The notes: generated by a model from the sequence alone, not told the origin. Shown: positions 15,253 through 52,746, counted from the first letter of the stretch. The stretch is 64,000 bases of DNA from Fidelibacterota bacterium (GCA_018650795.1 JABIFG010000058.1:9497-73496), one strand, 5' to 3'. Numbers and translations: made by a program.

Positions 15253-15261
15253 TTCGACCTC

Positions 15262-20157: not shown

Positions 20158-20170
20158 ACTTATATCCAGC

Positions 20171-21163: not shown

Positions 21164-21165
21164 AG

Positions 21166-23445: not shown

Positions 23446-23454
23446 AGTAGTCCC

Positions 23455-31713: not shown

Positions 31714-33222
31714 TTATCCCTCGTCATAAAACTGATAGTCCCGGTGATTGTGCAGGTGCTTCCTGGCATATTTTTCATTGGAGAAATACTTCCAGACTTT
31801 CTTGCCCTTTTTAGTTTTGAAAAATGGATCGGCTGCCTGTATCGGTGGATACTGTTCCAGAACCTTCTCAAAATATTTTCTGGCTTTCAATACATCAGGA
31901 TCGGAGGAATCCGACACATTTTTATATCCATGTCCGTCTCTACTATCCCCACAATCGTAAAAACGCCCCTGTGGCATATCCAGAATTGGATTCAGGGCTT
32001 CAAGCAAATAACGTCTGGTACGCATGAGCTGCGTTGTGCCAACTGCACTATAAATCCAGTCCCTGTGCGCGTCTGAATCACCATTAAAAAATGGTTTCAG
32101 GCTCTTGCCGTCGACTTCATAGCCACGGGGTAAGTCACCACCAGCATATTCAACCACCGTTGGCAGGATGTCTGAGAGATCTGTCATTTCTGCAGTGAGT
32201 CCACGCTGTTTCACCGGACCACCAAAGGCTACAAAAGGAACGCGACAGCCCCTCTCAACTCCTCGAGATTTTGCGGTGGAACCTGTTCCATTGTCTGAAC
32301 AATAAATAATGATGGTGTTATCAAGAATATCCAGATCTTCCGCTTTTTTGATAATTTGCCCAACCAAAACATCGATATACTCATTCATAGCGGCAAAACG
32401 AGCCTGTTTCTCGCCTGATTCCAATCCGCCACCGATTTCACCCTGTTTACCGCGCAGCGGTGTGGTGGCTGGTCCCTTTCGAGTACCATGTGGTGCGACC
32501 ATGGGGTAGTATGCCAAGAAAGGTCCCTTTTTATTTCTCTCCATAAAATCACAAACAAAATCTGTAAATATCTGTGGTCCATAATCATCAGGTTTGGTAT
32601 CTAGCAATTTATGATTCTGGATAATCCCGGGGTGCCAATAGCGAGCAGTCGTAGCTTCATCTTCCCAGGCGCCTTTGTGTTTGGGTGATCCCTGTAGCTT
32701 TTTGATTTCACCTTTTGATTCCCAGAGGCAGTATTCTTCAAATCCACCCGTTTCAGAGTAGGGTGTACCTCTACCAAGATGCCATTTCCCTGCAATAGCC
32801 GTGGCATATCCAGCCTGTTTGGCCAGTTTCCCAAAACTATGATGATGGGCATGCAGATCTTCACTATTTTTTGCAACAGGATATTTGAAATTATTATGAT
32901 AAAATCCGGTACGATTCGCATATCGGCCTGTCATGATCATCGCTCGTGTCGGGCTACAAATGGCGCTGGACCAGGCGGTATCAAACTGAACTCCCTCCCT
33001 GGCTATTCTATCGATATGGGGAGTTTTTACCTCGCTATTTCCATAACAACCATACAGATCGGGACTCACGTCATCTGACATGATCAGAACAATATTCGGA
33101 CGATCCCCCGATTTGCTTTTCTTACCAAAGATTCCTGAATGTGCTAGTTGTGGTAGCGATATAGCAGCAAGTCCAACACCTGCTTTGCTTAAGAATTGAC
33201 GTCTATTCAGGTTATTTGTCAT
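31714..33222 (-). CDS. S1-family sulfatase, Tat-secreted
   Basis: NRRQFLSKAGVGLAA; MSDDVSPD...CSPTRAMIMTGRYANRTG. Confidence 0.9.
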   Translation of the reverse strand: MTNNLNRRQFLSKAGVGLAAISLPQLAHSGIFGKKSKSGDRPNIVLIMSDDVSPDLYGCYGNSEVKTPHIDRIAREGVQFDTAWSSAICSPTRAMIMTGRYANRTGFYHNNFKYPVAKNSEDLHAHHHSFGKLAKQAGYATAIAGKWHLGRGTPYSETGGFEEYCLWESKGEIKKLQGSPKHKGAWEDEATTARYWHPGIIQNHKLLDTKPDDYGPQIFTDFVCDFMERNKKGPFLAYYPMVAPHGTRKGPATTPLRGKQGEIGGGLESGEKQARFAAMNEYIDVLVGQIIKKAEDLDILDNTIIIYCSDNGTGSTAKSRGVERGCRVPFVAFGGPVKQRGLTAEMTDLSDILPTVVEYAGGDLPRGYEVDGKSLKPFFNGDSDAHRDWIYSAVGTTQLMRTRRYLLEALNPILDMPQGRFYDCGDSRDGHGYKNVSDSSDPDVLKARKYFEKVLEQYPPIQAADPFFKTKKGKKVWKYFSNEKYARKHLHNHRDYQFYDEG

Positions 33223-37335: not shown

Positions 37336-38703
37336 TTAAATGTTGAATTTCCTGAGCCGATTAGCAAATATTCTTTTCATTCGATGACCTTTTGTCTGAC
37401 TCACTGAATACCCATTGTGGCTACTCGCATCGCTATAAGTAGATCCAACTGAGTTCGATGATCGTGACGTACTATCAGGAGACTCATTGAAATCCATCAC
37501 AGCTTCAACTAATAATACAGCATCCAGGACATCATATGAGAGATCTCGGTTCATATCAATAATCAGAAGTTCGTCTTCATTTGCGGGAATTCCTGATTGA
37601 GATACGATCTCCATCAACCGCTGCAAATCCAGAACATCTAATAGGCTATCCGCATTCACATCGCCGAAAAAAATGTGCTGACCCAGCAGGAATACTTTAG
37701 CTCCGGGATTGGCGTCACCAATAGCAATCGCCAGACCTGGTTCATACATATAGATATCCCTGATTGAGAATCCATAGATATCATTGCCGCCAAAACTTTC
37801 ATCCTCCCAGGTTTGCCCGCCATCGCTGCTTGAGTGTATTACTCCGTAGCCACTACTGGATACTGTAATCCCTCCAATCATAATATTGGAACTATCTGCA
37901 TAGCTCACTGCCTGATATTTTGCTGAATTATTTGGATCCAGGTTTAGATCGATGAAGTTTTGACCACCATTATGTGTCATCAAGGCAGTGCCATTGGTTC
38001 CCACAACAGTCCAGTTATTCACATCAAATGCATCAATATCCTGAAAGACGGGTGTACCGGCTGAGTGGATGAGGACACCCCAACTCTGACCGCCATTGGA
38101 TGTTGATACAAGAGCCCCCTTCTTCCCCGCTGCGATCCAATTATATTCATCGATAATTTCAAGCGCCATGGTGCTAGCATTATTGTGGATACTAGGAAGA
38201 ATGTCATTCAGAGCTGAATTCATTTCCCAGGTTTCACCTGTATTACGAGACGTAAAGAGCTTACCTTTTTTATCCATCACGATGGCGGTGCTATCATTCA
38301 ACCATCTGACCCGACGAATAGATTCAGGTGTATCGAAGCTGTTGTAGGTCCAGCTCGTCCCACCATCGAGGGTTCGCATGTTCATCACATTGGATCCACC
38401 AACAAAACCGGTGAACTGATCTCGAAAACTTGTTGTGACCATCGAAATACCATTGTCAGCGGCTGGACAGGTCAAAAGTTGCCATGACTGTCCATAATCC
38501 AGTGTTTTCAGGACACCACCTTCAGGAATTGAATTTAGAGCACCACCGACGGCAACGTAAGCCACACCATCTTCAAGTATAGAGATTTCATTCAATTTGA
38601 TAATGCTGTCATCGACAGAAACTTCATTCCATTGAGTAAAGCCTTGTGATAAAATCAAAAAGCCAAGTATAAGCCATTGGAAGTGAATATTTTTTTTCAT
38701 CAT
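37336..38703 (-). CDS. BNR/Ycf48-like beta-propeller protein with a C-terminal dockerin-like module (no T9SS CTD)
   Basis: Signal peptide. Six Asp-box/BNR-like repeats (TLDYGQSW, TLDGGTSW, SRNTGETW, STSNGGQSW, THNGGQNF, SSDGGQTW). Dockerin-like duplicated Ca-loop GDVNADSLLDVLDL...IDMNRDLSYDVLDAVLL (D-x-N-x-D-x3-D-x2-D twice). Ser-rich tail. Confidence 0.65.
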   Translation of the reverse strand: MMKKNIHFQWLILGFLILSQGFTQWNEVSVDDSIIKLNEISILEDGVAYVAVGGALNSIPEGGVLKTLDYGQSWQLLTCPAADNGISMVTTSFRDQFTGFVGGSNVMNMRTLDGGTSWTYNSFDTPESIRRVRWLNDSTAIVMDKKGKLFTSRNTGETWEMNSALNDILPSIHNNASTMALEIIDEYNWIAAGKKGALVSTSNGGQSWGVLIHSAGTPVFQDIDAFDVNNWTVVGTNGTALMTHNGGQNFIDLNLDPNNSAKYQAVSYADSSNIMIGGITVSSSGYGVIHSSSDGGQTWEDESFGGNDIYGFSIRDIYMYEPGLAIAIGDANPGAKVFLLGQHIFFGDVNADSLLDVLDLQRLMEIVSQSGIPANEDELLIIDMNRDLSYDVLDAVLLVEAVMDFNESPDSTSRSSNSVGSTYSDASSHNGYSVSQTKGHRMKRIFANRLRKFNI

Positions 38704-38810
38704 CCTGGATTCACAGTCCTATCATATTGTATATATAACACTAACAGAAGCAGTCCTATTTTTAATGTATTTATATAGTAACATCAATCTATTGTGTCTT
38801 TATGTATATT

Positions 38811-38820
38811 TAGTATACTA
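38811..38820. promoter_or_regulatory. 10-bp perfect palindrome TAGTATACTA inside the shared block TCAATCT..TATGTATATTTAGTATAC, about 110 bp upstream of the gene start
   Basis: The same block (tcaatct...tatgtatatttagtatac) recurs at 42716-42739 upstream of the paralog that starts at 42611. Confidence 0.35.
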
Positions 38821-38885
38821 TATATTTTAATCATTCCAAGGAATACCTAAACAGTTATTTAGTGACACCAGAAAGTGAGAATTGT

Positions 38886-38978
38886 GTCATTCTGATGGAG
38901 CGCAGTGATAGAAGAATCTTGGTCCTTTTGATGGAATCCTTCTTATGGATCAAGATCCTACGCGGTGCTCAGGATGAC
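38886..38978. repeat. Copy of the dispersed intergenic element with clear terminal inverted repeats (GTCATTCTGATGG ... GCTCAGGATGAC)
   Basis: gtcattctgatggagcgcagtgatagaagaatc...cgcggtgctcaggatgac. The internal sequence resembles 6156-6190 (gtcatcctgaggctctcgaaggatgatagtcc). Confidence 0.5.
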
Positions 38979-39003
38979 GGGGAGAAATGACATTTCGATG
39001 GAC

Positions 39004-39041
39004 AAATAAAAAGAGGCTGATAGCCTTTCAGCAATCAGCCC
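39004..39041 (-). terminator. Rho-independent terminator downstream of the 39070-40908 gene
   Basis: Minus-strand reading GGCTGATtgctgaaaggctATCAGCC followed by TCTTTTTATTT: perfect 7-bp stem plus T-run. Confidence 0.6.
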
Positions 39042-39069
39042 CTGATAAGTCAAAATCAATGACTCTATA

Positions 39070-40908
39070 CTATTTCATCAGGATCATTTTCCGGGTCAGG
39101 CTATGCATCCCCGATGATAATCTGGCAACATAGATACCAGACGGCATATTGGTCGCACTGAAGGTCAAGGTATATGAACCTGCAGTTTGATAGCCCTGTA
39201 CAAGTTTGCTGATCTCATTACCATTGACATCGTAAATCGTAAGTTCAACCACTCCACTCTCAGCTAAATCATAGCTCAATTGAGTCGAGGGATTGAATGG
39301 ATTGGGATAGTTTGTATGTAGAGCAAATGTCTGTGGACTCAGTCGACCATCGATTGAGACAGGACTAACCAGAATATAATCAGCCTTTGTCACAGTCACC
39401 GAAGCACCTGCCAAATCTCGTACAGTCAAACTCACTGAATAAGTTCCTGCCTCACTGAAAGTATAGCTCGGATTCTGAACATCTGAATCCTCAGTACCAT
39501 CATTATTAAAATCCCAACTCCAACCGATAATGCTAGATGCACCAGCTGTGGAAAGATCAGTAAATGATACTTCCAGAGGAGCTAGACCTTCAGTTACTGA
39601 AGCACTAAAATCTGCTGTAGGTGCATTATATGGATTGATTGTGATGATGACGTCATCGGTATCCGTAGCGCTACTGTCATCTGTAACCGTTAGTGTGACA
39701 GTATAGGTTCCAACCTCAAATGCGCTGGAGGCAGAAACACCTGAAGCACTGCCACCCTCCCAGGCCCAGTCATAACTGACAATCGAGCCATCACTATCCG
39801 ATGAGCCTGATCCATCCAATGTCACAAAGACGGATTGATTTGGTGCGGCAACATCAAAAGTTTGATCAGCTCCGGCGTTAGCGACTGGAGCATTGTTGCC
39901 ACCGCCGCCTCCGGAGGGATCACCCAGTTGATAAATTCTCCCACCTGGATTGAGATCTCCCAGAGCAATAACTGTGGTCGCATCATACATGTGAATCTCT
40001 CGTACCGTACAAGAGGTTGTACTGGGTATATCTGCTTCTGTCCAGGTAGCACCACCATCTGTGGTTTGATAAATTACTCCAGGACTTCCTGATCCCAGAT
40101 TACCACCTGCCATGGCATTATTTGCATCTAGATAATCTAAGGATTCAAATCTTGCCGCAGAGTTTAAAGTCATAGTTGTAAAATTTGCTCCCCCATCAGT
40201 TGTCTTGAGGGCAGAGCCATTAGTCCCAACAATCATCCAGTTATCCACATCAATAGCATCAATACCCAGAAAGACTGGCGTACCCAGACCCTGTGGCAGA
40301 ATAGTCCATGTGGCACCAGCATCCGTAGTTTTTGCGATAGCTCCCTTTTTCCCAACACTGACCCAGGTATTGTCATCAAGGAATTCCATATCATAACAGC
40401 CTGCTTTGCTGTGAATCGTTTGGAGTACATTTACAAGTGCACGACTCGAAGTCCAGTTCACACCTGCATCTTCGCTGATAAATACCTTACCACTATCGCC
40501 AACAGTGATTACTGTAGTAGCGCTCAACCATTTTGAGACCCAGAATGAATTTACTGCCTCAAAAGCTGGTGTTTCCCAGGTGGCACCACCATCACGAGTT
40601 ATCATGACGACATGGTCTTTGCCAGTGACGATTCCCAGGTTTACATCCCAGAAGTCTACTGAAAGCATCCCGGTCGGTGTCGTTGCTGCCGGGCAATCCA
40701 ATTCAGTCCAGGACGTTCCCCAGTCAGTGGTTTTTAAAACACCACCATAGGGTATATCTGTCTGATTGCCGATGGCGATATAGGCGGTCCCGTCATCCAG
40801 GATACTTATCTCCTGCAGTCGACCATCTGGTACAATTTCAGTCTCGGTCCATTGGGCAAACACAATTGATATTAGCAATAGTGCTGATACCCCTATTCGT
40901 TTAAGCAT
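39070..40908 (-). CDS. BNR/Ycf48-like beta-propeller protein with two PKD domains and a type-A T9SS CTD
   Basis: Propeller repeats (TTDWGTSW, TRDGGATW, EDAGVNW, TTDAGATW, TTDGGANF, TTDGGATW). Gly-rich linker. PKD regions ...VTLDGSGSSDSDGSIVSYDWAW... and SWDFNNDGTEDSDVQNPSYTFSEAGTYSVSLTVRD. CTD LHTNYPNPFNPSTQLSYDL...GIYVARL...RKMILMK. Confidence 0.7.
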   Translation of the reverse strand: MLKRIGVSALLLISIVFAQWTETEIVPDGRLQEISILDDGTAYIAIGNQTDIPYGGVLKTTDWGTSWTELDCPAATTPTGMLSVDFWDVNLGIVTGKDHVVMITRDGGATWETPAFEAVNSFWVSKWLSATTVITVGDSGKVFISEDAGVNWTSSRALVNVLQTIHSKAGCYDMEFLDDNTWVSVGKKGAIAKTTDAGATWTILPQGLGTPVFLGIDAIDVDNWMIVGTNGSALKTTDGGANFTTMTLNSAARFESLDYLDANNAMAGGNLGSGSPGVIYQTTDGGATWTEADIPSTTSCTVREIHMYDATTVIALGDLNPGGRIYQLGDPSGGGGGNNAPVANAGADQTFDVAAPNQSVFVTLDGSGSSDSDGSIVSYDWAWEGGSASGVSASSAFEVGTYTVTLTVTDDSSATDTDDVIITINPYNAPTADFSASVTEGLAPLEVSFTDLSTAGASSIIGWSWDFNNDGTEDSDVQNPSYTFSEAGTYSVSLTVRDLAGASVTVTKADYILVSPVSIDGRLSPQTFALHTNYPNPFNPSTQLSYDLAESGVVELTIYDVNGNEISKLVQGYQTAGSYTLTFSATNMPSGIYVARLSSGMHSLTRKMILMK

Positions 40909-40960
40909 ACTTCCTCCCCTGTCGCGTTTTAATCTGTTTCAAATAATGCCACGCTTCTTA

Positions 40961-41009
40961 CTTATAAATAAAGTGAGGAGATAAAGCCTGGAAGACCCTA
41001 TCCCCTCAC
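40961..41009 (-). terminator. Probable Rho-independent terminator downstream of the 41037-42611 gene
   Basis: Minus-strand reading GTGAGGGGAtagggtcttccaggctttaTCTCCTCAC followed by TTTATTTATAAG. The stem is imperfect. Confidence 0.35.
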
Positions 41010-41036
41010 CATCAAACTTTAGAACGATTGATCATA

Positions 41037-42611
41037 TTATTTCATCAGGATCATTTTCCTGGTCGTGCTATTCATACCTGAAGTTAATCTGGCAACATAG
41101 ACACCTGATGGCAGGTTGTTCGCACTGAAGGTCAGTGAATGTGATCCAGCGGATTGGTAGCCTTTTACCAGATTACTGATTTCATTCCCGTTCACATCAT
41201 AAACCGTCAATTCAACCATTCCACTCTCAGCGAGATCATAGCTGATCTGAGTCGACGGATTGAAGGGATTGGGAAAATTAGCATGGAGATCAAATGTCTT
41301 TGGACTCATACGGCCATCAACAGATACGACTGCATTGACTATAATAATCACTTCATCAGTAGCTGTTTCACCACCATCATCAGTTACTGTAAGTGTGATT
41401 GAATAAGTACCAGCTGCAAATTCTACATCAGCTGTCTCACCGGATGCTGTTCCACCGTCCCAGGACCATTCCCAGGCAGCTACGGTTCCATCGGAATCTG
41501 AAGATCCAGATCCATCAAGTGTAACGGTTACTCCCAGACCAGGTCCAGTTTCATCCATAGTTTGATCAGCACCTGCATCGGCTGTAGGGGCAACATTGCC
41601 AGTTCCAGATCCTGGATCACCAAGGATGTAGACATAACCATCAGTAGTCCCAACATCACCAACAACGATAACGTCTGTGGCACTGAACATATGTACATCA
41701 CGGACGCTATAGTTGTACAAATCTGCACCTGCAAATGTTTCAGCAACCCAGGTTGATCCACCATCAGCGGAAGACATCATGACACCATTACCATCGATAT
41801 ACTTACCGCCGACAATAAGATTATCAGCGCCAAAATTATCGATACAGTACCAATCAATTGTGGCTTCAGGATTAGCACCTAAATCGGCAATATTTGGGCC
41901 ACCATCACTGGTAAACAATACTTTACCCTGTTTACTCACAGCATACCAGGAATTAGCATCAACGGCTGTTATATCCTGGAAAAAGACCGTCCCAGCTGTA
42001 TGGGTAACTGCTGTCCAGGAAACACCCCCATCTGTGGATTTCAAGATCGCACCCTTTTTGCCACAGGCCAGCCAATTATTTTCATCAACGATTTCCAGAG
42101 CAGTAATATTCGCACTGCCATGAACACCAAGAAGCGCTGTATTCAAGGCAAAATCCTCGGTCCAACTCGCTCCGTTATCTTCTGTATAATAAAGAATACC
42201 TTTAAAATCCACTGCCACAAATCTGGTATCTGTGATCCACCGGACTTTATTGGTCTTATTGGGACCACCTGGACTTACACCGGAGGTCCAGGTTTCTCCA
42301 CCATCCAAAGTGACCACCATGTAACCGATGGGTCCAGTAGCAAATCCGACACCAGTGTTGTTAAAAGCAACCGTCAGAAGGGAGCTAGCACCTTCACCAG
42401 CATAATACATCAGTGTATCCCAGGTCGTTCCATAATCAGTAGTTTTCAAAACCCCGGAATAGCCAGTTCCACCTAAAGCGACATATGCCAGACCATCATC
42501 CAGTACCTGAATTTGATTTAGTTTTCCCATCGTTTCAACGACCACTTCTGTCCACTGTCCAAAACCAAGCGACATGCAGATAATTGTCAATACGAGTAAC
42601 TTTTTAAGCAT
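41037..42611 (-). CDS. BNR/Ycf48-like beta-propeller protein with a PKD/Ig-like domain and a type-A T9SS CTD
   Basis: Paralog of the 39070-40908 product. The CTD and the last ~250 nt are about 80% identical at nucleotide level to 39070-39320. PKD-like ...VTVTLDGSGSSDSDGTVAAWEWSWDGG...TYSITLTVTDDGGE. Confidence 0.7.
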   Translation of the reverse strand: MLKKLLVLTIICMSLGFGQWTEVVVETMGKLNQIQVLDDGLAYVALGGTGYSGVLKTTDYGTTWDTLMYYAGEGASSLLTVAFNNTGVGFATGPIGYMVVTLDGGETWTSGVSPGGPNKTNKVRWITDTRFVAVDFKGILYYTEDNGASWTEDFALNTALLGVHGSANITALEIVDENNWLACGKKGAILKSTDGGVSWTAVTHTAGTVFFQDITAVDANSWYAVSKQGKVLFTSDGGPNIADLGANPEATIDWYCIDNFGADNLIVGGKYIDGNGVMMSSADGGSTWVAETFAGADLYNYSVRDVHMFSATDVIVVGDVGTTDGYVYILGDPGSGTGNVAPTADAGADQTMDETGPGLGVTVTLDGSGSSDSDGTVAAWEWSWDGGTASGETADVEFAAGTYSITLTVTDDGGETATDEVIIIVNAVVSVDGRMSPKTFDLHANFPNPFNPSTQISYDLAESGMVELTVYDVNGNEISNLVKGYQSAGSHSLTFSANNLPSGVYVARLTSGMNSTTRKMILMK

Positions 42612-42849
42612 ACACCTTCTCCTTTAATGTTAAATAAATATGAAACCTCGAGTTGCCTTCCTAAGACACTCTCATTTTCCAATAATTATATACTGTAAAA
42701 ACCATTATGTTATTCAATCTTATGTATATTTAGTATACCTATTTTTTATAAAAAAGCAAGTCTAACATTCTAACATTCTGTGTAAATCTTGTGACCCTAA
42801 AGCTTTACAAATTAGAGTGGAGGAATCTATCGATCCTTCAGAATTATTA

Positions 42850-44763
42850 CTACCTAACCAACAACATTTTTATGGTATCAGACCGATTTCCCAAAATCAT
42901 CCTACAAAAATATATGCCTGTATGTACAGATAATCCTGCGTCGTTTAAACCATCCCAACTTGCTACATGTTGACCAGCAGGCATATTCTCGTTCTGTAGA
43001 ATTGCAACTTGCTTTCCCCTGGTATCGAAGACCACAAGGGAAACCGGACCAGCCTGTGAAATACCATATTGAATGCTGGTACTGGGATTAAAAGGATTAG
43101 GAAAATTTTGATGCAACATGATATCCTCTGGATTAACCGGATCATATTCATCCACGCTCAATAATATCTCGGCCTGGATTTCGGAGCCCCCCGGTCCTGC
43201 CAGGATCAAATTATCAATGCTGAATTCCACTGGTCCCGTAAATGCAACGTCAATAACCTGCATGGGAAGTTGTATCAGGAGTCCAGATTCAACATTGATC
43301 TGACCACCCCCAATATTTACACCCAGAAGACGCGTGTTTCCCGCTCCTGTGCTAGTAAATGTGGATGCTGATTCATTTCCCGGTGCTAATTCTGGTGTTC
43401 CAATTTCAAAAACGGATGGATCAAAATTAATATCTGCCTGAAACCCGGAAATCATCCCATTATATGAAATGTGAACAGGGACATTTTGCCATTCCAGAGT
43501 ATTATGAACTCGAGTCATTGATTGCGATGAAAGCGTCGTACCAGAAACAATCGACCTGGCAAGTGCAGAATCGTCAAGGATGGCTTCAATCAGCATAACC
43601 ACATCCAGGATATCGTTTGAATTATCACCATTCATATCCATAACCCGTAATTCGGTTTCCAGACCAGGATCACCGGTGGAAGTGATGATCTCAACCATGC
43701 GAGTTAAATCTGTTACATCGAGTTGTCCATCTCCAGTGATATCACCAAAGAACAGGGCTTCACCATAAAGGTATATACGTGAATCGGCACTTTGGGAATC
43801 ATGGTTGTAGTCCCCCACAGCTAGCGCATGGTCGTATCGATACATATGAATATCATTAATCATGATGGTGTTTTCATTGCCAGCGGTAAAGGGTTCATCG
43901 ATCCAATTCATTCCACCATCAGAACTGTAATGAATAACACCTGAAGAGGATCCATCCTGACCGCCGATCATCACATGATTCTCGTCGAAACAACTCACTG
44001 CATTATAATCAAAAGTATTTGAAGGATCGGGATAGAGCCTGGTAAAACTGTTACCCCCATCTGTGGTCTTCAGCACCCTCCCATTATTTCCAACAATAAA
44101 CCAATTATCAATATTTAATACTGAAATATCCTGGAAGACTGGCTTGCCAGCTGAATGTGAACATTCGCTCCACGTCAATCCATGATCCATCGTTTTGAGC
44201 ACCGCACCTTTCTTACCTACTACCACCCAATTGTCGTGATCGATGATCTCAAGGGCATAGGCTTTGGCTCTGCTGTTAACAAGATTTAACGCGGCTTCAA
44301 GACTAGTAGTTACCACCCAGCCCGCGCCAATATATTCAGTAGACCATATGATTCCATTTTCCGTTAACATTATTAACTCAGAAGAACCTATCCACCTGAC
44401 TGAGGAAATATCGTCTGAACTGCCAAACTGATCTAGTTGCCAGTTGGCTCCACCATCTTGAGTCCAGATATATTTCCCGTTTGAACCACCTACAACACCA
44501 TAATTCTCATTTTTAAACGCAATGGTTGATGCATCGTCAAGCCAGTCAACTGGACCAGAGGTTATAGTTATCCAATTTTCACCGTAATCCGTTGATTTGA
44601 TTAGCTCTGAACCATCTGAGCTGTGAACCACCGCAAATGCCAAGCCATCATTGAGGGTGCAGATTTCTATAATTTCACCCTCGTTTGGCACTTCAACTTC
44701 AACCCACTGTGGAAATCCAATTGTGAGACAAATAGTGATCAGTAAAAGCAGATGCTTAGACAT
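42850..44763 (-). CDS. BNR/Ycf48-like beta-propeller protein with a dockerin-like module, a cohesin-like module and a type-A T9SS CTD (scaffoldin-like)
   Basis: Dockerin-like GDITGDGQLDVTDLTRMVEIITS...MDMNGDNSNDILDVVMLIEAIL. The following ~140 aa (ISGFQADINFDPSVFEIGTPELAPG...LLGVNIGGGQINVESGLLIQLPMQVIDVAFTGPVEFSIDN) resemble a cohesin (core motif like CDFVFRYDPNVLEI). CTD LHQNFPNPFNPSTSIQYGI...GIYFCRM...KMLLVR. Confidence 0.6.
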   Translation of the reverse strand: MSKHLLLLITICLTIGFPQWVEVEVPNEGEIIEICTLNDGLAFAVVHSSDGSELIKSTDYGENWITITSGPVDWLDDASTIAFKNENYGVVGGSNGKYIWTQDGGANWQLDQFGSSDDISSVRWIGSSELIMLTENGIIWSTEYIGAGWVVTTSLEAALNLVNSRAKAYALEIIDHDNWVVVGKKGAVLKTMDHGLTWSECSHSAGKPVFQDISVLNIDNWFIVGNNGRVLKTTDGGNSFTRLYPDPSNTFDYNAVSCFDENHVMIGGQDGSSSGVIHYSSDGGMNWIDEPFTAGNENTIMINDIHMYRYDHALAVGDYNHDSQSADSRIYLYGEALFFGDITGDGQLDVTDLTRMVEIITSTGDPGLETELRVMDMNGDNSNDILDVVMLIEAILDDSALARSIVSGTTLSSQSMTRVHNTLEWQNVPVHISYNGMISGFQADINFDPSVFEIGTPELAPGNESASTFTSTGAGNTRLLGVNIGGGQINVESGLLIQLPMQVIDVAFTGPVEFSIDNLILAGPGGSEIQAEILLSVDEYDPVNPEDIMLHQNFPNPFNPSTSIQYGISQAGPVSLVVFDTRGKQVAILQNENMPAGQHVASWDGLNDAGLSVHTGIYFCRMILGNRSDTIKMLLVR

Positions 44764-44801: not shown

Positions 44802-46346
44802 TTAAAAACCATATTTCAGACCTATCAGTACAGTACTACTATGCTGCGATACAAAATTAAGATAGGCATAAGCAGGTTCTAAATACTTTATATGCTGGTA
44901 TTCATAAGCTATGTCTAACTGAACCTTTATGATGGAGATGGATACCCCCGTTGTAAGGCTGGTGGATCGAGGACCTTCAGATTTATCTGCAACTCCCCAG
45001 GGTACATATGCCAGGGGTGTTGAACGATAACCACCCATCAGGGTCAAAAAATCTGCTAGATCATAAGATAGACCTAATTGATAATTCATTACATCCGCCC
45101 ATTGATATTGAGTCGAGTCAGAGACAATATCCCCATAGCCAAAATCTGCATATTGAAATGTCGCAGACTCGTATGGATTGAAGCCCATGTCAAAGGCGAT
45201 ACTCAAATCTTCTGTTGCCTGAATATTTACCCCAACTGTATAAGAAGCAGGTATATCAGCATAATCCTGGCCACTAAGTGGGATTGATGAGACTGAATCA
45301 GGGGCAGAGACATGCCGGGTATAGATCCAGTCCCTTTTAAGTCGATAGGGCAACTTGACCTGAAAACCGAAGTCGATAGTTTCATAATCCAGGATCAAAC
45401 CCAGATCCATATTCAGACCACTAAAACTTGACGTCCCACTTGTCCGGGTCACTAGTGAATCATGTGAAAAAACAAAACTTTTTGACCATAGATCCAGATC
45501 CGCTATTTTATCGAGAACTAACTCATCCTCAGTATCACCAGACAGACTATTCACACCCAATCCAAGTTGAATGACTTCGCCAGGACTATAACCGAGGGCA
45601 AATCGTAGAGAATTGACTACCCCTTGACGACTCCTGGTGAATTGTGACCATACCACATGGGCTGTATCATCACTGTTATCAAAAGTATAGTGCATATACG
45701 GTCGGTGTGCCAGGAAGGGATCAGTATGACTGTCATTTCGATCGTAGTCATCCACATTGTACTGACGTGAAAAGGATCCGCCCAGGACAATATCCTGTTC
45801 AAATAGCGTGATCGGTAAAACCGCGGAGATGGCGTTTAGGGGCAATCTTTTGGAGCGCTCCTCGATCCAGCTCGCAGCACTACGCTCGTAATGATAAACA
45901 CCCTGCTCAGGGATGCCAATGTCTTCAATATCCATCAGTAACCAGAGTGAATCGTCTGTAACACCATATTGTCCAGGATCAATTTCAAAACGATAGTCCA
46001 AAATCATACTTAGCATGGGTGTGGATTCTTGATCTCCCCACATTTTATTTTCCCATAGGGTGGTCTCGGTCGCTTTAGCAGAGAATGAAATTTGAAATTC
46101 CTCAATGCCATTCAAACCGGCTGGATTAAAATAAATCGATTCAATTTCACCTGATTTTGCTGCATAAGCATTTCCAGTCGCAAGCCCTCTAACGCTCAGG
46201 GGACTGATCTGCCCCAGACCCTGAAATCCGAGATCCGCACCATTCCCCTGTGCATAAACGCTGGTGACACACATCATCCAAAGCAAGCCTGCGCTGAATA
46301 AAACTGGAAGTCCACTTCTTTTCATTTTGTATCCTAAAGAATCCAT
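44802..46346 (-). CDS. long PorV/PorQ-like (FadL-like) T9SS-associated outer-membrane beta-barrel, ~507-514 aa (paralog of 18640-20157)
   Basis: SVRGLATGNAYAAKSGEIESIYFNPAGLNGIEEFQISF; C-terminal ...STVLIGLKYGF (terminal Phe). Probable start MKRSGLPVLFSAGLLWMMC... at 46325. Confidence 0.5.
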   Translation of the reverse strand: MDSLGYKMKRSGLPVLFSAGLLWMMCVTSVYAQGNGADLGFQGLGQISPLSVRGLATGNAYAAKSGEIESIYFNPAGLNGIEEFQISFSAKATETTLWENKMWGDQESTPMLSMILDYRFEIDPGQYGVTDDSLWLLMDIEDIGIPEQGVYHYERSAASWIEERSKRLPLNAISAVLPITLFEQDIVLGGSFSRQYNVDDYDRNDSHTDPFLAHRPYMHYTFDNSDDTAHVVWSQFTRSRQGVVNSLRFALGYSPGEVIQLGLGVNSLSGDTEDELVLDKIADLDLWSKSFVFSHDSLVTRTSGTSSFSGLNMDLGLILDYETIDFGFQVKLPYRLKRDWIYTRHVSAPDSVSSIPLSGQDYADIPASYTVGVNIQATEDLSIAFDMGFNPYESATFQYADFGYGDIVSDSTQYQWADVMNYQLGLSYDLADFLTLMGGYRSTPLAYVPWGVADKSEGPRSTSLTTGVSISIIKVQLDIAYEYQHIKYLEPAYAYLNFVSQHSSTVLIGLKYGF

Positions 46347-46347
46347 T

Positions 46348-47433
46348 TTAAAGAGTCATTCCGAGTGAAAATCTATTGATGGCTCCCAGATAGGAATCAT
46401 AATTGTTGAATGAATAATCCACTTGCACACCTTTAAAATGCAGACCAAAACCAAGGCTCCAGTTCTCTGTATCATAATTCAGTTTGTAGCCAGATCTCAC
46501 AAAAAGCAGCTCATCGTAAGCATATTCCAATCCAAAATTAAACTGCTGATCGTAATCACGGGGAGCCAACATATCCACCGCAAAGAGCAGACTGGATTTC
46601 GAGTTCGGTGAAGTGAGAATCGCATCTTTTGGACCAAAAACATAGCCAGAAATACCCATGACTAGAATCTGTGGTAAGGGATACTGTTTACCTGTAACTG
46701 TTTTGATTTCATCCGTATAAGTACTGTCATGGAAGATTCGCAGGGTGTCTTCATATTCAATAAAACTTACATCCTTACCAAAATGTCTCAGGACCATAGA
46801 TATTTTTACAGATTCATAACCCGTTTTGTATTGCAGACCTGTATCAAAGGCGATGAGGGAAGCTGACATCTCACTACCATTATAGGAATAATCCGCATTT
46901 TCCTTGATCTGCTTCGCTGTCAAACCGAATGCAAATTTGTTCGTAAGGGATGCGGCATAGGACAAGCCGATAATCTGATGTCCAGGGTTAAAAGTCTCGC
47001 CGGTAAGACCTGGATTAAAATCTCCGTTTTGATATCCCATTGCATCTACAGAAGTGACATTCATTTCGCCATAATCGGTGAATTGAGCCATCATACCAAC
47101 AGTTCCAAAATTTGGAAAGTTGTAGGCGGCTGAAAAGGCAGAGGTTTTTACATCAAAGAAATAGTTGAAATGAGAAGCCGAAAGATCAAGCTTATCAATA
47201 TCCGTCAGACCTGCAGGATTGATAAACATTGCAGATGCACCATCAACAAAGGATGATATGGCATCACCCATAGCCGCCGATCTGGCGGTGGGATTGACCT
47301 TAAGGAATTGAAATGCAGTCGTCCCAACCTTTTCCTGAGCCATCACGGAGGAAAGGAAAATTGCAGCACAGATGATGACCTGTCTTGCCCTGCCTGATCT
47401 TCTTTTCATAATTTTCTCTTCACTCCATATCAT
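46348..47433 (-). CDS. PorV-like T9SS-associated outer-membrane beta-barrel (paralog of 20171-21163)
   Basis: TTAFQFLKVNPTARSAAMGDAISSFVDGASAMFINPAGLTD; ends ...NRFSLGMTL. One-bp gap to the next gene and a 4-bp overlap with the previous one, so they are co-transcribed. Confidence 0.55.
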   Translation of the reverse strand: MIWSEEKIMKRRSGRARQVIICAAIFLSSVMAQEKVGTTAFQFLKVNPTARSAAMGDAISSFVDGASAMFINPAGLTDIDKLDLSASHFNYFFDVKTSAFSAAYNFPNFGTVGMMAQFTDYGEMNVTSVDAMGYQNGDFNPGLTGETFNPGHQIIGLSYAASLTNKFAFGLTAKQIKENADYSYNGSEMSASLIAFDTGLQYKTGYESVKISMVLRHFGKDVSFIEYEDTLRIFHDSTYTDEIKTVTGKQYPLPQILVMGISGYVFGPKDAILTSPNSKSSLLFAVDMLAPRDYDQQFNFGLEYAYDELLFVRSGYKLNYDTENWSLGFGLHFKGVQVDYSFNNYDSYLGAINRFSLGMTL

Positions 47434-49793
47434 TTGATAATGAAAAATTTGCCACCGGTGGTTTGACCATCGGGGGTTGAGACCGAATAGAAATAGAGAC
47501 CTGCTGCAATAATTTGGTCATTTCGACTGACCTGGAAATACTGATGAGAATATGCATCAGAATCATGTTCCAGTGTTTCCACCAGTTGTCCGGCATATGA
47601 ATAGATGCGGATAGTACATACTGCAGGTAATCCATAAAATCCGATCATGTTGTCTTCACCCGTACCGGAGAAACCTGATTTTTCAAAGAAGGGATTTGGT
47701 GTCACCACGATTTCACCCAATTCTTCCACTGCCCCTTGACTCCTTCTAAATGCTGGTAGGTCGGCATTATCGGGATCAGGAAAGATGTTGGATTTTCCAG
47801 ACTCAAAGCCCTCAGTATCAAAACTTGTAGCTGCATAGAATACGGCTTCGCCCATCTTCAGGGTCGAGTCTTCATCAAAGAATTCGTAGGTATTGTCTGA
47901 GTTCACATCTCCAACGCCCTTAGATATGAGTAATTTCCATGGCCCCAGAGGATTGTAGGCCCTATATAAATTGAATCCACCAAGATCGTTCACCGTATGA
48001 GGAAAATTTTCCACCGCCCGATTCCAGCGTACTCGCACTCCCTGCAGAGCAGTATTAGCCACTTCCACAATGGGTGCAGGCCATGGAATATCTTGAACTG
48101 AATAGTTCCCATCTCTCGCATTATTCTCAGGCCAATAGCGGAACTCACCGGCACCCCAGCTTTCAACAGGAGCCAGTGAATCGCCAGTGTACATCTCGTA
48201 AGCTTTGCGGGAAACATCCTGCACTGTGATTACATCTGAGTTCACATAGTCAGGATATCCATAGTCTGAGATGTAATGGCTGGTCATGACCACATCATTC
48301 CCCTCATCATTTTTAAGAATGACATCAAAGGAGTCGATGTTGACGGGCTTCATAAATAATACATTCGCATCGTGTGATCCCCCACCCATAATCTCGCGGG
48401 AATCAGTGCCATATCCCACTACTTGAGCCATACTAAATTCGATGGTGTCGCCCCGATGAATTGTATAGGGACCAAATGCAAACGCCTGAAGCGGCATAGC
48501 ATTGGCTTTTTTAGACGAGAAAGATCCCCTGCCGACCCAGGTCTCACCGACTCGTGGATCTGTCAAATAGCTAGTTCCGAAAGGGTTCCCTCGCCTCTCG
48601 GTTTCACTAGAGGCACCTTCGTAAAGCTTATTCAGACCAAACCAACCTTTGTTCTTGTAAATTTCCCAGGGTTGTCTGATTCGAAATACATTGGTATCTG
48701 GTTCATCAGGAAACTGAAACAGCTCATGATCATTCGCTTTCCAGGCATAGGAGGTTTCACCATCATAAACTGTCGTATCAGTGGCGATGTTGATTGCTGA
48801 GAGATGTTTTGTATCATAATAGAGCATACTCATGCCTGCAGCCTGAGGAGCCAATAGCCCGCCACCATTTTTACCGGTTCTGGCCCATTCTTCAAAAAGA
48901 TCCAGATTTGGTTCTGGTTTGGCCTTACGGTTTAAGGAACCATTTGTTTGTGTATCAAAATTAAAAAGGGTCCATAATTTGTGATCAAAACTCTGATGGT
49001 TTCCATCGCTTATGAGTCCAGGCTTCCAGTTCCAGATGCCACCATATTCAGGTTGACGCTGATAGGCAAACATGTTGGGACCCCAAGCCTGACCGAAAAA
49101 AACAACAAAATCTTCCCAGACTTGAACCGTGTCTAGTGTAGTAATACCACCGGAGCTACGCTCTATAGTAACCTCTTCAATGGTAGTAGGATCACTATCA
49201 GTATTTCCATCGAAAACCAGTTCATATTCATGAATGATCATGTCATCATAATCAGGATAACTCCAGGCTCGCGATACGCGGGTTATTGTGACACCCATAC
49301 TGGTTGCCCATTTGGCATAGATAATTTCTTCGGCTTCTTCAGGATCATACTCGGGGTTAAGACTTCCATCTGAAAGAATGGGATAATTCTCAGTTCGATA
49401 AAATTCGACAGGAAAATTCCAGATACCAATGGTTTCCTCGGGTCCACCACCTCCGACGAGTCCACAAAATGAGAAATGACGATCGGTCTGAAACGGTTTA
49501 TCATGAACATTTCCTGATATATGAATCCCACCGCCCATAGTGTTGTGCTGTCCATCATAAATGATGGTACCCTCAACCGTGCTGGAGTACTTGGGCCATT
49601 CCATCTGAGGGTGATCAACGATATCCATACCGTCATTGTGAAAGGGTGTGCTGATGATTCCATTATTATAGAGAGATTCACGCATCATTCCTCTGCGCAT
49701 TACTTTGTATTCTCGGCGTTGACCCCAGACAGACGTCAAAGTGAGCAAAAGCATGATGATCAGCGCAATCCAGGTCTTTTCATTTTTAAACAT
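47430..49793 (-). CDS. large secreted protein of unknown function with a type-A T9SS CTD (paralog of 21166-23445)
   Basis: Signal MFKNEKTWIALIIMLLLTLTSVWGQ. Shared blocks EWPKYSSTVEGTIIYDGQHNTMGGGIHISGNVHDKP, HFSFCGLVGGGGPEE and GGLLAPQAAG. CTD ...IVVTPNPF...GLYFYSVST...KFFIIK. Confidence 0.6.
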   Translation of the reverse strand: MFKNEKTWIALIIMLLLTLTSVWGQRREYKVMRRGMMRESLYNNGIISTPFHNDGMDIVDHPQMEWPKYSSTVEGTIIYDGQHNTMGGGIHISGNVHDKPFQTDRHFSFCGLVGGGGPEETIGIWNFPVEFYRTENYPILSDGSLNPEYDPEEAEEIIYAKWATSMGVTITRVSRAWSYPDYDDMIIHEYELVFDGNTDSDPTTIEEVTIERSSGGITTLDTVQVWEDFVVFFGQAWGPNMFAYQRQPEYGGIWNWKPGLISDGNHQSFDHKLWTLFNFDTQTNGSLNRKAKPEPNLDLFEEWARTGKNGGGLLAPQAAGMSMLYYDTKHLSAINIATDTTVYDGETSYAWKANDHELFQFPDEPDTNVFRIRQPWEIYKNKGWFGLNKLYEGASSETERRGNPFGTSYLTDPRVGETWVGRGSFSSKKANAMPLQAFAFGPYTIHRGDTIEFSMAQVVGYGTDSREIMGGGSHDANVLFMKPVNIDSFDVILKNDEGNDVVMTSHYISDYGYPDYVNSDVITVQDVSRKAYEMYTGDSLAPVESWGAGEFRYWPENNARDGNYSVQDIPWPAPIVEVANTALQGVRVRWNRAVENFPHTVNDLGGFNLYRAYNPLGPWKLLISKGVGDVNSDNTYEFFDEDSTLKMGEAVFYAATSFDTEGFESGKSNIFPDPDNADLPAFRRSQGAVEELGEIVVTPNPFFEKSGFSGTGEDNMIGFYGLPAVCTIRIYSYAGQLVETLEHDSDAYSHQYFQVSRNDQIIAAGLYFYSVSTPDGQTTGGKFFIIK

Positions 49794-49827
49794 GATGTAT
49801 CTTACCCTTCTACAGCAACTGATCGCT

Positions 49828-52746
49828 CTAAAACTTGATATTCACACCCATCCTGTAATAGGCTGGTGTGTTTTTATAAATTATTGCTTCTTCGATGTAT
49901 GGAAAATCCACATTTAATGTGTATACTCGAGCTCCATCATGCCAGATTTGCTCAAGCAATTCGCCATTTTCATCATAAATATTTTCCCATTCACCTTCAA
50001 CTCCATAGTCATGGAGATCTGATTTACGCTCACTGTCCCCACGGAAGACGGAATAATTGAAAACCTTATCATTCAGCAGGTTCATACCCTCGAAATAGAC
50101 AGTATACTCGTATGCTCTCAGATGGAATGTCTTCTGGAGACGTGCCTGAAGCTTGTTTTCCTCTGGTGTTCGTCGATTATAACGCTGACCTGCAACTTCG
50201 GGATCGAATGTGTAGGGACGCCCTGTCATCCAGTCATTGCGAATATTCAAGTTCCAACTTCCCATAGGTCGTGATCCAAATACTTGGGGACCAAATTTTT
50301 TGGGGCTTCTAATATTGAAACTGGTGACCAAACGGTGGGTGCGCTCATAGTCCATAGGGATGTCTTCGGGATCAGGTAATTCAATATCTATGCGCCCCGA
50401 TAATCTGTCCAATTCAAGATAGGTTACGGGTGCATCAAAGGGAGTGGCTGACTTTCCAGTAGCTTTCTGATATCGATAGCGGACAATTGCTGTGAATAAT
50501 TTGCTGCGCTTTTCAATACTGGCATGAAAACCTTTAATATTGGCATAGTCCCGATTGTCATAGGTGCGATAAACGTTGGTCTCTTCATCGATATAGGTCA
50601 CAGCCTGGATCAGATCTTTCACATCCTTATAATAGAGACTCACATCCATCCTGATACCAAATGGAAAGCCCTGGACCACACCAATATCATATGAGTTGGT
50701 TTTTTCAGGACGAAGCTGTGGATTACCCAGGCTATTAACACGACCCGTTTCTTCGATACGACGTTCATAGACATACTTCAAACCAGGTCGCTGGACGAAT
50801 TGGCCATAATTCATATGTACTACTGAAGCCAGATTGATGGGAAATGCTATTCCCAGACGGGGTTGCAGTCGGGAGAATGGCTTGGTGTCTTCACGCAAAG
50901 CATTATCTATATCCAAATAATCTGTTTGCTCAAAGTAAGGTAGGTCAGGATTAAAATCCGGATTGCGTGTCGGTGAGAAACGATCGCTGAAATAACTCGT
51001 GTTAAAATCGTAAAAATCCCACCGCAAACCAAGATTGGCGATCATTCCCTCAAACTCGAGTTTGTCTTCCAGGTAGAGAGCACCTTCAATTGGTGTTACT
51101 TTATACTCATTCAACTCATAATTGGTCTGACTTGTTACATTATTTTCAGCATAATTTTTGATATCGTAGGCGAAGACCTGAAGACCGAATTTGAGAAGAT
51201 TGTAATTTGTTAGTTGATTTGAAACTTGACTCAACAGAGAATAGGTTGTGTTTTGATTGCGATTTCTGGAATTAGCGAATTCATCACTATACATACCGTT
51301 CAATCCCAGTCTGGAGAAAAAAGGCAATGCATTGGAAGGTCCATATTGGGGAATTTGTTGATTTGGGTCACGAATGGGTGCAAGCTGCCATGAGCGGTTA
51401 TAGAGAATCCGGAAGTTTAGATCCATAAAAGCAGCTTTTGAAAAAACGTGTTCCCAGCGAAAGCGTAAATTTTGGGTTGTCCGCATCTTTTTAGAGTTAC
51501 CCTCTTCCCTGAAGAAAAGATCTCTCGAATTATTCACACCAATCGTATTACTAAAATTATAATTATAATCATAACCCATCACCAGTTTGTTAGTACTGCT
51601 CATATCATGGGTAAGATTTACCATTAAATCTCGACGAGTATCAGGCACTTCTGAGGGTATTATATTTGGTTTTGAATGATTGCCCAGGGCGAAAAAGATA
51701 CGTGTATTATCAGTAATAGGACCACCACTGCTAAAGTTCACCCGCAGATCTTGCCAGAGGTCATTATAATTTCCATCCAGCAGTCGCGAAAAACTTCGAA
51801 ATTGGGCATAAGCAAACATAGCTTGCTTTAAGGTATCATCGTAGGTGTGGGCAGCATATTTGCCACCACCCGTTTCCTCGAAATAAGGATTCTCTGAGTC
51901 TGTAGTCGAGGTCAACCAAAACTCTGGACCGCCAGCAAAGAGGTTCCAAGGGGTTTTGGAGGTGTCAAAAACACTGCCACCCCAGTACAAATCATGAGGG
52001 GCTGTATAAGCAATCTGTACATTCGTACGCCACTTATTTTTACCCTGTTTTGGAATCATGTTCACAACACCAGATTGAGTGTTACCATATTCTGCGCTAA
52101 ATCCACTTGTCACGACCTGAACTTGTTCCATACTGATCACCAGCGGAGTGTAGGCTTTGCCATTTTCCATGGGATCTACAATGGTTCCACCATCAACCAG
52201 ATACAGGGTTTCATTTTCGCGGCCACCACGAAAATGATCATCAACGACATCGGCTTGTAAAGCGATCACATCGTCAATTTCGTACATGGCTGTATTGTTT
52301 TCCATTTCCGACATGGCGTAATTTTGACGTGTGGCTGTGAGATCAACCTGTATGTCATCAGCCCGATAGGCTGTAACCACAACATCTTCACCTAGAATGG
52401 CTTTTGGTTCGAGCTCAAAATTCACCCAGGTTGTGCGGTCCGCATCCACACGTACTCTGGTTCTTAGTTCAGTACCATACCCCATCATCATGACTTTTAT
52501 ATCATAATCACCCGGTTCGAGGTTCAGAATAAAATATTGACCTTTGTCATTGGCTGCAGCACCAGCTGGATGGAGCATTTCTACCTGAAATTCATCAACC
52601 CAAGTGGTAGGGACCACGATGGAAGCACCAATCAGAGGTTCTTTCGTTTCCAGATTACGAATCACCCCAGCTATTTTGCCTGTTACACCTGCAAAGCACC
52701 AGCTTGTCATCATTATGATCAGGAAGAAAGCTTTTGTGCCTCTCAT
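49828..52746 (-). CDS. TonB-dependent receptor (paralog of 23455-26379)
   Basis: GKIAGVIRNLETKEPLIGASIVVP...GQYFILNLEPGDYDIKVMMMGY; TSGFSAEYGNTQSGVVNMIPKQG; terminal YYRMGVNIKF. Confidence 0.8.
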   Translation of the reverse strand: MRGTKAFFLIIMMTSWCFAGVTGKIAGVIRNLETKEPLIGASIVVPTTWVDEFQVEMLHPAGAAANDKGQYFILNLEPGDYDIKVMMMGYGTELRTRVRVDADRTTWVNFELEPKAILGEDVVVTAYRADDIQVDLTATRQNYAMSEMENNTAMYEIDDVIALQADVVDDHFRGGRENETLYLVDGGTIVDPMENGKAYTPLVISMEQVQVVTSGFSAEYGNTQSGVVNMIPKQGKNKWRTNVQIAYTAPHDLYWGGSVFDTSKTPWNLFAGGPEFWLTSTTDSENPYFEETGGGKYAAHTYDDTLKQAMFAYAQFRSFSRLLDGNYNDLWQDLRVNFSSGGPITDNTRIFFALGNHSKPNIIPSEVPDTRRDLMVNLTHDMSSTNKLVMGYDYNYNFSNTIGVNNSRDLFFREEGNSKKMRTTQNLRFRWEHVFSKAAFMDLNFRILYNRSWQLAPIRDPNQQIPQYGPSNALPFFSRLGLNGMYSDEFANSRNRNQNTTYSLLSQVSNQLTNYNLLKFGLQVFAYDIKNYAENNVTSQTNYELNEYKVTPIEGALYLEDKLEFEGMIANLGLRWDFYDFNTSYFSDRFSPTRNPDFNPDLPYFEQTDYLDIDNALREDTKPFSRLQPRLGIAFPINLASVVHMNYGQFVQRPGLKYVYERRIEETGRVNSLGNPQLRPEKTNSYDIGVVQGFPFGIRMDVSLYYKDVKDLIQAVTYIDEETNVYRTYDNRDYANIKGFHASIEKRSKLFTAIVRYRYQKATGKSATPFDAPVTYLELDRLSGRIDIELPDPEDIPMDYERTHRLVTSFNIRSPKKFGPQVFGSRPMGSWNLNIRNDWMTGRPYTFDPEVAGQRYNRRTPEENKLQARLQKTFHLRAYEYTVYFEGMNLLNDKVFNYSVFRGDSERKSDLHDYGVEGEWENIYDENGELLEQIWHDGARVYTLNVDFPYIEEAIIYKNTPAYYRMGVNIKF

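Follow-up and report, generated by a model that had tools for sequence, protein, structure and literature searches.

The cohesin–dockerin interaction is the classic Gram-positive means of building cellulosomes, and its two modules are well known outside cellulosomes as well. The adaptor scaffoldin ScaC of Ruminococcus flavefaciens has one cohesin and one dockerin, and the enzymes of Clostridium perfringens are known to bear either a cohesin or a dockerin each. Within the Fibrobacterota–Chlorobiota–Bacteroidota (FCB) group of diderms, a cellulosome-like system has been inferred in silico for Candidatus Stygibacter (Cloacimonadota), in which a cohesin protein has a C-terminal sorting domain (CTD) of the T9SS (type IX secretion system) for surface attachment and dockerin proteins are secreted (Williams et al. 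2021, PMC8542988). In the Chlorochromatium epibiont (Chlorobiota), the adjacent genes Cag_2037 (cohesin) and Cag_2038 (dockerin) have been modelled (bioRxiv 10.64898/2026.03.19.712371). Here, we analysed a 64,000-nucleotide stretch of DNA recorded as Fidelibacterota bacterium (GCA_018650795.1, JABIFG010000058.1:9497-73496), referred to as the window, which contains an array of four paralogous propeller genes, A to D. The C-terminal tail of protein D consists of a dockerin (Doc), a cohesin (Coh) and a T9SS type-A CTD, that is, of canonical modules in a new fixed arrangement coupled to secretion and anchoring of another kind, in a marine phylum that is abundant and uncultured.

The described systems each share part of this design. 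Stygibacter has one 3,755-aa scaffoldin of tandem cohesins and carbohydrate-binding modules (CBMs), with dockerins on GH18, GH57 and peptidases (PMC8542988), whereas here one chain has both a single cohesin and a dockerin immediately upstream of the CTD, none of the enzymes of the locus bears a dockerin, and the arrangement is spread over about 70 clusters. The Chlorochromatium pair resembles the present case in its FCB lineage, its neighbouring socket (cohesin) and plug (dockerin) genes and the predicted tethering of a secreted protein to the cell surface (bioRxiv 10.64898/2026.03.19.712371), but it uses type I secretion system (T1SS) export, places its modules on separate giant proteins and has no CTD cassette. 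Adaptor scaffoldins and clostridial type I Coh-Doc pairs (1OHZ, 2CCL, 6KGC) are Gram-positive, use surface-layer homology (SLH) or sortase anchoring and place the dockerin C-terminal to the cohesin; here, in contrast, the dockerin precedes the cohesin across a very short junction, a T9SS CTD follows, and the passengers are propeller- or adhesin-like instead of cellulases. The glycosidase and toxin complexes of C. perfringens (2JH2, 2O4E, 2W1N, 2VO8) and a cohesin of Archaeoglobus fulgidus (2XDH) are among the best structural matches to D. The C. perfringens complexes are also alike in having modules on non-cellulolytic secreted proteins that join pairwise without a large scaffold, but that organism has no outer membrane or T9SS. 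Our literature search, in which coverage of subscription journals was incomplete, found nothing tying dockerins to Marinimicrobia/SAR406 or describing a Doc-Coh-CTD tri-module. It likewise found nothing on Latescibacteria with a dockerin and a cohesin; the original prediction had likened the locus to that phylum, and the proteins prove to be annotated Candidatus Marinimicrobia, so that an attribution to Latescibacteria is wrong.

All four open reading frames of the array were recovered where the original prediction had placed them, on the minus strand, together with the following features.

42850-44763, minus strand: gene D, 637 aa; signal peptide, Ycf48-like propeller, dockerin, cohesin, T9SS type-A CTD
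43759-44709, minus strand: D propeller, aa 19-335; BNR/Asp-box, Ycf48-like; PF14870 47.5 bits
43573-43746, minus strand: D dockerin, aa 340-397; two F-hand Ca loops, D341-D352 DITGDGQLDVTD and D376-D387 DMNGDNSNDILD
43120-43572, minus strand: D linker and cohesin, aa 398-548; nine predicted strands at aa 409-536; core motif GFQADINFDPSVFEI
42853-43119, minus strand: D T9SS type-A CTD, aa 549-637; TIGR04183 32.3 bits, custom CTD hidden Markov model (HMM) 107 bits
37336-38703, minus strand: gene A, 455 aa; signal peptide, propeller, dockerin, Ser-rich linker, basic tail; without CTD
37492-37662, minus strand: A dockerin, aa 348-404; loops DVNADSLLDVLD and DMNRDLSYDVLD
37339-37491, minus strand: A C-terminal tail, aa 405-455; Ser-rich linker and conserved basic end QTKGHR[ML]KRIFAN; not a CTD
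41037-42611, minus strand: gene C, 524 aa; propeller, one PKD (41337-41597), type-A CTD (41040-41285)
39070-40908, minus strand: gene B, 612 aa; propeller, two PKD-like domains, type-A CTD
about 39349-39897, minus strand: PKD-like domains of B (profile match)
39073-39318, minus strand: type-A CTD of B (profile match)

We examined the dockerins of A and D, each of which is built from a tandem pair of ~22-residue F-hand repeats whose loops carry canonical Ca ligands at positions 1, 3, 5, 9 and 12. On PF00404 (Dockerin_1), D scored 30.7 bits, above the Pfam gathering threshold (GA) of 22.9, and its orthologs and cassette homologs scored 27-39 bits; A reached 17.4 bits and stayed below the GA, so that the Pfam check proposed for the two proteins came out for D and not for A. 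The A dockerin aligned without gaps with D-type cassette dockerins and scored 89 bits on the subfamily dockerin HMM. The loop aspartates were the sole invariant columns across 36 diverse aligned cassettes; in 42 cassettes, loop positions 1 and 12 were invariant D, position 3 was N or D, position 5 was D, and position 9 was D, N, S or T. The D-x-N-x-D loops, whose loss in orthologs had been proposed as grounds for discarding the original prediction, are kept there. Putative recognition residues are common to the A and D dockerins in both repeats (V/I-L/T at positions 10/11, E at position 18).

For the cohesin segment of D, Cohesin (PF00963) was the sole family match, as it was in all 5 close homologs (best E 4.6e-7). 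The D score was 20.0 bits at full length and 23.5 bits (E 7e-5) for the isolated segment against a GA of 24.1; the family call anticipated in the original prediction was thus obtained, though not above threshold. Of the subfamily cohesins that were re-scanned, most fell at 18.9-23.5 bits and some distant members at 24-66 bits, with P0151 (66.1 bits), P0154 (40.2 bits) and P0198 (36.6 bits) among the distant members of the subfamily HMM that exceed the GA. Public annotation misses this subfamily because most of its members score just below the Pfam cutoff. An AlphaFold2 (AF2) model of D aa 335-550, built from a 36-sequence Doc-Coh alignment, had a predicted local distance difference test score (pLDDT) of 87 and a predicted template-modelling score (pTM) of 0.83, with three dockerin helices at pLDDT 96 and nine beta-strands at pLDDT 91-96. 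The three-helix fold of its dockerin superposes on solved dockerins, and its nine-stranded beta-sandwich (jelly-roll) on solved cohesins. In a Foldseek search against the PDB, the best 48 matches were all cohesins (best E 3.5e-7, target TM-score about 0.7), and an earlier AF2 model from a 5-sequence alignment, with a pLDDT of 56, nonetheless also matched cohesins best. Searching PDB sequences with the cohesin profile gave motif-level ScaB matches only, plus a spurious match to CfaB. As modelled, the dockerin and cohesin of D are genuine modules, and the core that had been described as cohesin-like has a cohesin fold and not that of an unrelated beta-sandwich.

We next explored how widely the D tail is distributed. 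The closest homologs of the D C-terminus (43-51% identity) follow unrelated passengers. With a cohesin-only profile, HMMER was run exhaustively over 1.84 billion cluster representatives and recovered 148 cohesin relatives, compared with only 5 matches from a word-indexed homolog search with the cohesin profile. We scored 151 proteins, composed of the HMMER relatives and the cassette homologs P0001–P0004, with custom dockerin, cohesin and CTD HMMs: 59 had the order Doc-Coh-CTD, 8 more had it with a split dockerin call and 3 were Coh-Doc-Coh-CTD, while 27 were Coh-CTD and the rest cohesin-only or multi-cohesin. The Doc-Coh-CTD tail is thus present on about 70 clusters at 50% identity, always with the dockerin and cohesin strictly adjacent. 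Cassette proteins range from 314 to 2,957 aa and bear FG-GAP, NHL and PD40 propellers, Laminin_G, ASH/Ig domains or a papain-family peptidase as passengers; in the giant proteins of 2,000-3,000 aa, a Pfam dockerin above GA lies directly upstream of the cohesin. At the other extreme, P0137, P0135, P0144, P0147 and P0157 (248-254 aa) consist only of a signal peptide, a cohesin and a CTD, making these minimal proteins candidate single-socket surface anchors; the genomic context of P0137 (L012) gave no functional clue. The Coh-Doc-Coh-CTD variants P0169, P0191, P0198 and P0154 have an extra cohesin above the Pfam GA directly upstream of the dockerin and thus carry two sockets and one plug. Named members of the family are Marinimicrobia, P0137 included, and one protein from candidate division KSB1 (P0198, which carries a papain-family peptidase). 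Judged from sequence, the D tail is not a one-off shuffle but belongs to a cassette that is widespread among Marinimicrobia and the FCB lineages related to them. Describing dockerin and cohesin with T9SS anchoring as highly unusual was therefore an overstatement, given the earlier inference of cohesin plus CTD in Cloacimonadota and the occurrence of the exact tail on about 70 clusters.

Individual members of the family showed further features. At locus L009 the cassette follows in frame a protein of more than 1,533 aa and is split from it by a single TAA (4605-4607), which may reflect an error in sequencing, a nonsense mutation of recent date or read-through; the downstream 'gene', P0002, begins at the dockerin and is without a signal peptide. 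Residues 1-120 of P0001 (L001) form a Cys-rich N-terminal domain (TDNYPGETTWDI, YDAFGDGICCAYGEGYW) with no relation to the propeller; its motif recurs within the giant L009 protein. A covariation analysis of dockerin recognition positions against cohesin columns, meant to probe self-matching specificity, was uninformative, as high-entropy columns dominated with only 70 sequences.

To place the array itself, we compared it with a related genome. Exact array proteins were found on more than 100 contigs (longest 438 kb) and the exact A sequence on 107, from Candidatus Marinimicrobia (Neomarinimicrobiota) metagenome-assembled genomes, and a metagenome scan yielded a single orthologous locus, L011. 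There the gene order is FadL-like, D, C, B, A, rhaM, a CBM protein and a GH141-like protein, such that the order D, C, B, A and the architectures of D and A are kept. The D ortholog (P0127) is 70% identical with the same architecture, the C ortholog is 84% identical, and the A ortholog is 68% identical, is again 455 aa without a CTD, and retains the Ca loops and basic tail. The B ortholog (L011 7926-9575) has 549 aa compared with 612 aa and one PKD-like domain fewer, so that the number of C-terminal modules differs even between B orthologs. Values of dN/dS by Nei-Gojobori, approximate since dS is saturated, were 0.11 for the D propeller, 0.06 for its dockerin, 0.21 for its cohesin and 0.05 for its CTD, and 0.10 and 0.60 for the A dockerin and linker. 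The A and D dockerins are 80-82% identical in amino acids to their orthologs compared with 70% for the propellers, and the A dockerin, at 80%, is the most conserved part of A. No close relative of D was found among GTDB representatives, whose propellers matched at only about 25% identity. Propeller relatives beyond the two related populations were Ycf48-like proteins of FCB bacteria at 28% identity or less, mostly with CTDs, and the A architecture was seen in the two related populations only.

The A protein differs from its paralogs in its end. No CTD was found in it by Pfam, TIGR04183 or the custom CTD HMM, and it does not end in its dockerin, as had been proposed: a Ser-rich linker and conserved basic tail, 51 aa together, come after. 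The extreme C-terminus, QTKGHR[ML]KRIFAN[RH][LM]RK (window 37339-37389; L011 11318-11365), is basic and kept between both genomes. This basic tail might be an alternative sorting or membrane-binding signal. MAFFT loosely paired RIFANRL/RKFNI of the A tail with the last CTD strands; we tried and rejected the tail as a CTD remnant, since it scored −0.8 bits on the CTD HMM and shuffled tails scored up to 6.3.

We combined these observations into a proposed mechanism. D would be exported by Sec and then T9SS, as a surface protein of Marinimicrobia, its type-A CTD carrying it through the T9SS and tethering it outside by analogy with Bacteroidota. Its cohesin would serve as a socket for a dockerin in trans, from another cassette protein, another D or the paralog A, and its type-I-like dockerin would plug into the cohesin of a small Coh-CTD anchor or of another cassette protein. 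D would both accept and donate a link, and T9SS cargo at the surface would form chains or networks dependent on Ca, holding several paralogous, probably non-catalytic, glycan-binding propellers beside a TonB-dependent uptake cassette. What the analysis shows are the identities and folds of the modules, their conservation, selection and distribution, and the synteny of the array; the binding partners, the surface anchoring and the glycan binding of the propellers are steps that we infer.

This Ca-dependent trans linking of T9SS cargo at the cell surface is our best reading, and we put it at slightly better than even; it partly overlaps with two others, in which D chiefly docks A or the dockerin of D binds its own cohesin. 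That pairing occurs in trans is argued from the coexistence of socket-only Coh-CTD proteins, plug-only A and variants with surplus sockets. Several points weigh against trans linking. The cohesin of D scores marginally below the Pfam GA, and the enzymes of the locus are all without dockerins. A, with its signal peptide and without a CTD, would on its own be expected to get no further than the periplasm. It is in Bacteroidota, not in Marinimicrobia, that cargo with a type-A CTD is known to be retained on the surface, and it is from genomic context only that we infer a glycan-binding, SusE/F-like role for the propellers. Finally, the pTM of 0.83 and the short conserved junction suggest a fixed Doc-Coh arrangement in cis, which could occupy the socket of D. 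If the dockerin does bind its own cohesin, the pair would form a Ca-stabilised, rigid stalk linking the passenger to the CTD. D would then be no scaffoldin, and the A dockerin, if functional, would bind free cohesins such as those of the small Coh-CTD proteins. Such a pTM for a 216-aa two-domain construct, with both domains above pLDDT 90, is near the maximum expected only if the domains are confidently co-oriented, and the junction of about 12 residues, with a conserved 'LA[KR]' in the cassette alignment whose L and A are invariant after the dockerin, points the same way, as does the strict adjacency of the modules in about 70 clusters. However, a stretch of about 12 residues from the last dockerin helix to strand 1 of the cohesin would be marginal for reaching the canonical 8-3-6-5 face, going by 1OHZ-type geometry, and the Coh-CTD, plug-only and Coh-Doc-Coh-CTD proteins imply trans pairing somewhere in the system, leaving a purely intramolecular pairing rather unlikely.

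A narrower form of the original prediction casts D as a monovalent mini-scaffoldin whose main partner would be the CTD-less A, displayed through D. Because the A and D dockerins share recognition residues, A could use the D socket; the two genes also lie in one array conserved in two genomes, D has the sole cohesin in the window, and the A dockerin is gapless with the D type and under purifying selection. Against this, A without a CTD has no known way across the outer membrane, the socket would be contested by the dockerin of D, with the same recognition residues, and by about 70 other types of cassette dockerin, and other cohesins exist in Marinimicrobia; we therefore hold A as the main partner only tentatively, as a possibility on the unlikely side. 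A could instead be a decaying paralog that has lost Coh-CTD, its dockerin a partnerless relic and the C-terminal diversity of the array neutral domain loss, as the relaxed constraint on its low-complexity linker (dN/dS 0.60), its sub-threshold Pfam dockerin score and its confinement to two related populations would allow. Yet A remains an intact 455 aa in a genome where it is 68% identical, its dockerin is its most conserved region (80% identity, dN/dS 0.10), its exact sequence occurs on 107 contigs and its tail is no CTD remnant, all of which makes decay improbable. A broader proposal, which we regard as a long shot, takes Doc-Coh-CTD as a general self-assembly device for T9SS cargo, in Marinimicrobia and FCB phyla related to them, that would build a daisy-chained, Ca-dependent polymeric surface layer, with CTD-less dockerin proteins such as A riding the T9SS as a folded complex with a cassette cohesin bound in the periplasm (piggy-back secretion). 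Lastly, the cohesin-like segment might be an Ig-like beta-sandwich that is unrelated to cohesins and serves as a spacer, and the dockerin no more than a general Ca-binding repeat of EF-hand-like type, given the sub-threshold Pfam score of the D cohesin and PDB sequence matches at motif level only; distant members of the same HMM family pass the Cohesin GA, P0151 at 66 bits for example, and the structural matches of the D model already effectively refute this idea, whose remaining probability we consider negligible.

The propellers of A-D align over about 335 aa at 35-39% identity to each other, many of the G/W/D columns being invariant, and each scored 46-54 bits on PSII_BNR/Ycf48 (Pfam; GA 27). 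Their sole solved homolog is the photosystem II assembly factor Ycf48/HCF136 (2XBG, 5OJ5; profile against PDB, E 1e-17), which is seven-bladed, and the alignment showed six Asp-box-like motifs in each of A-D; the six blades named in the original prediction are a putative count. On the NCBIfam equivalog PRK13684 they reached 44-57 bits compared with a cutoff of 326, indicating only domain-level homology to Ycf48; in contrast to that factor, the propellers here belong to a non-photosynthetic heterotroph, include members predicted to be secreted by T9SS, and occur as four tandem paralogs in a fucan-utilisation locus. The C-termini of A-D diverge at a common point after the last propeller strand, so that modules swap at one junction, in keeping with the modular shuffling first proposed. 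The module sets proposed for A (dockerin without CTD), C and D also held, whereas B has two PKD-like domains in place of one: B combines a K319L-like PKD, a PKD_4 and a Por_Secre_tail, and C one PKD and a Por_Secre_tail. On TIGR04183 (cutoff 23), the type-A CTDs scored 41.2 (B), 42.7 (C) and 32.3 bits (D). Publicly, D is recorded as MBT3227655.1 under no more than 'T9SS type A sorting domain-containing protein', and A as MBT3227658.1, 'hypothetical protein'. In Bacteroidota, the 'Q-rule' describes an N-terminal pyroglutamate after signal peptidase I cleavage. An invariant Gln-Trp directly follows the signal peptide in all four proteins (D 44707-44712, C 42555-42560, B 40852-40857, A 38629-38634), and its sequence fits an extension of this rule to Marinimicrobia. 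Between C and B there is a strong terminator-like hairpin with an 18-bp stem and a T-run (40972-41010, minus strand), and the gap between B and A has a weaker one (39016-39032). The propeller paralogs may be separate transcription units; a promoter scan did no better than chance, and the enrichment of terminator-like sites was marginal.

The array lies directly downstream of an uptake cassette, the order of which is kept in L011, in a region rich in genes for fucan metabolism.

651-2294, 13645-16863, 61285-62802: GH29 fucosidases
4474-6114, 16898-18442, 31714-33222, 59895-61283, 62799-63941: sulfatases
44802-52746, minus strand: uptake cassette of four genes upstream of the propeller array, listed singly below
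49828-52746, minus strand: TonB-dependent receptor
47430-49793, minus strand: uncharacterised 787-aa protein
46348-47433, minus strand: PorV-like
44802-46346, minus strand: FadL-like

Overall, the window holds four GH29 alpha-L-fucosidases, at least six sulfatases and three TonB-dependent receptors, as well as GH141-like beta-helix proteins with CTDs, CBM proteins with CTDs and a rhamnose/fucose-type mutarotase (rhaM). On this gene content the window is a sulfated-fucan utilisation locus, the fucoidan assignment of the original prediction being upheld by the GH29, sulfatase and rhaM genes, and it implies a predicted capacity of SAR406 to break down fucoidan or sulfated fucan. A paralogous four-gene cassette lies at 18640-26379 (minus strand), with copies 39%, 40% and 26% identical; both cassettes comprise a TonB receptor, a 760-790 aa protein with a weak CTD-like end, a PorV-like protein and a FadL/Toluene_X-like protein. 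The PorV-like gene at 20171-21163 scored 27.8 bits on PF19572 and is 39% identical to its paralog at 46348-47433. These paired cassettes look like a Marinimicrobia counterpart of the SusC/D-type uptake module, without SusD and with a PorV paralog inside. T9SS markers in the window were the two PorV-like genes and 11-13 CTD proteins per 64 kb, and core T9SS genes were not found within it.

A six-frame scan of the window with the subfamily HMMs placed dockerins in A and D only and a cohesin in D only, with no dockerin on the GH29 fucosidases, sulfatases or GH141-like proteins. The cellulosome-like fit first suggested for the locus is thus not borne out by its carbohydrate-active enzymes: with no dockerin-borne enzymes in the window, this is not a cellulosome in the strict sense, and the single cohesin of D falls short of the multiple cohesins of a cellulosome scaffoldin.

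Marinimicrobia (SAR406) rank with the most abundant uncultured bacteria in the dark and low-oxygen parts of the ocean, and little is known of the way they deal with fucoidan and other polysaccharides. For annotation, the Pfam cohesin threshold overlooks most of this subfamily, whose records read 'T9SS type A sorting domain-containing protein' or 'hypothetical protein'. In these bacteria a single conserved cassette joins the cohesin–dockerin interaction to the sorting tag of the Gram-negative T9SS. Should the modules pair in the predicted way, they would add a second, non-covalent layer of organisation to T9SS-displayed proteins, and, if true, this would provide a handle for predicting surface complexes from metagenomes and new orthogonal Coh–Doc pairs of marine origin for protein engineering.

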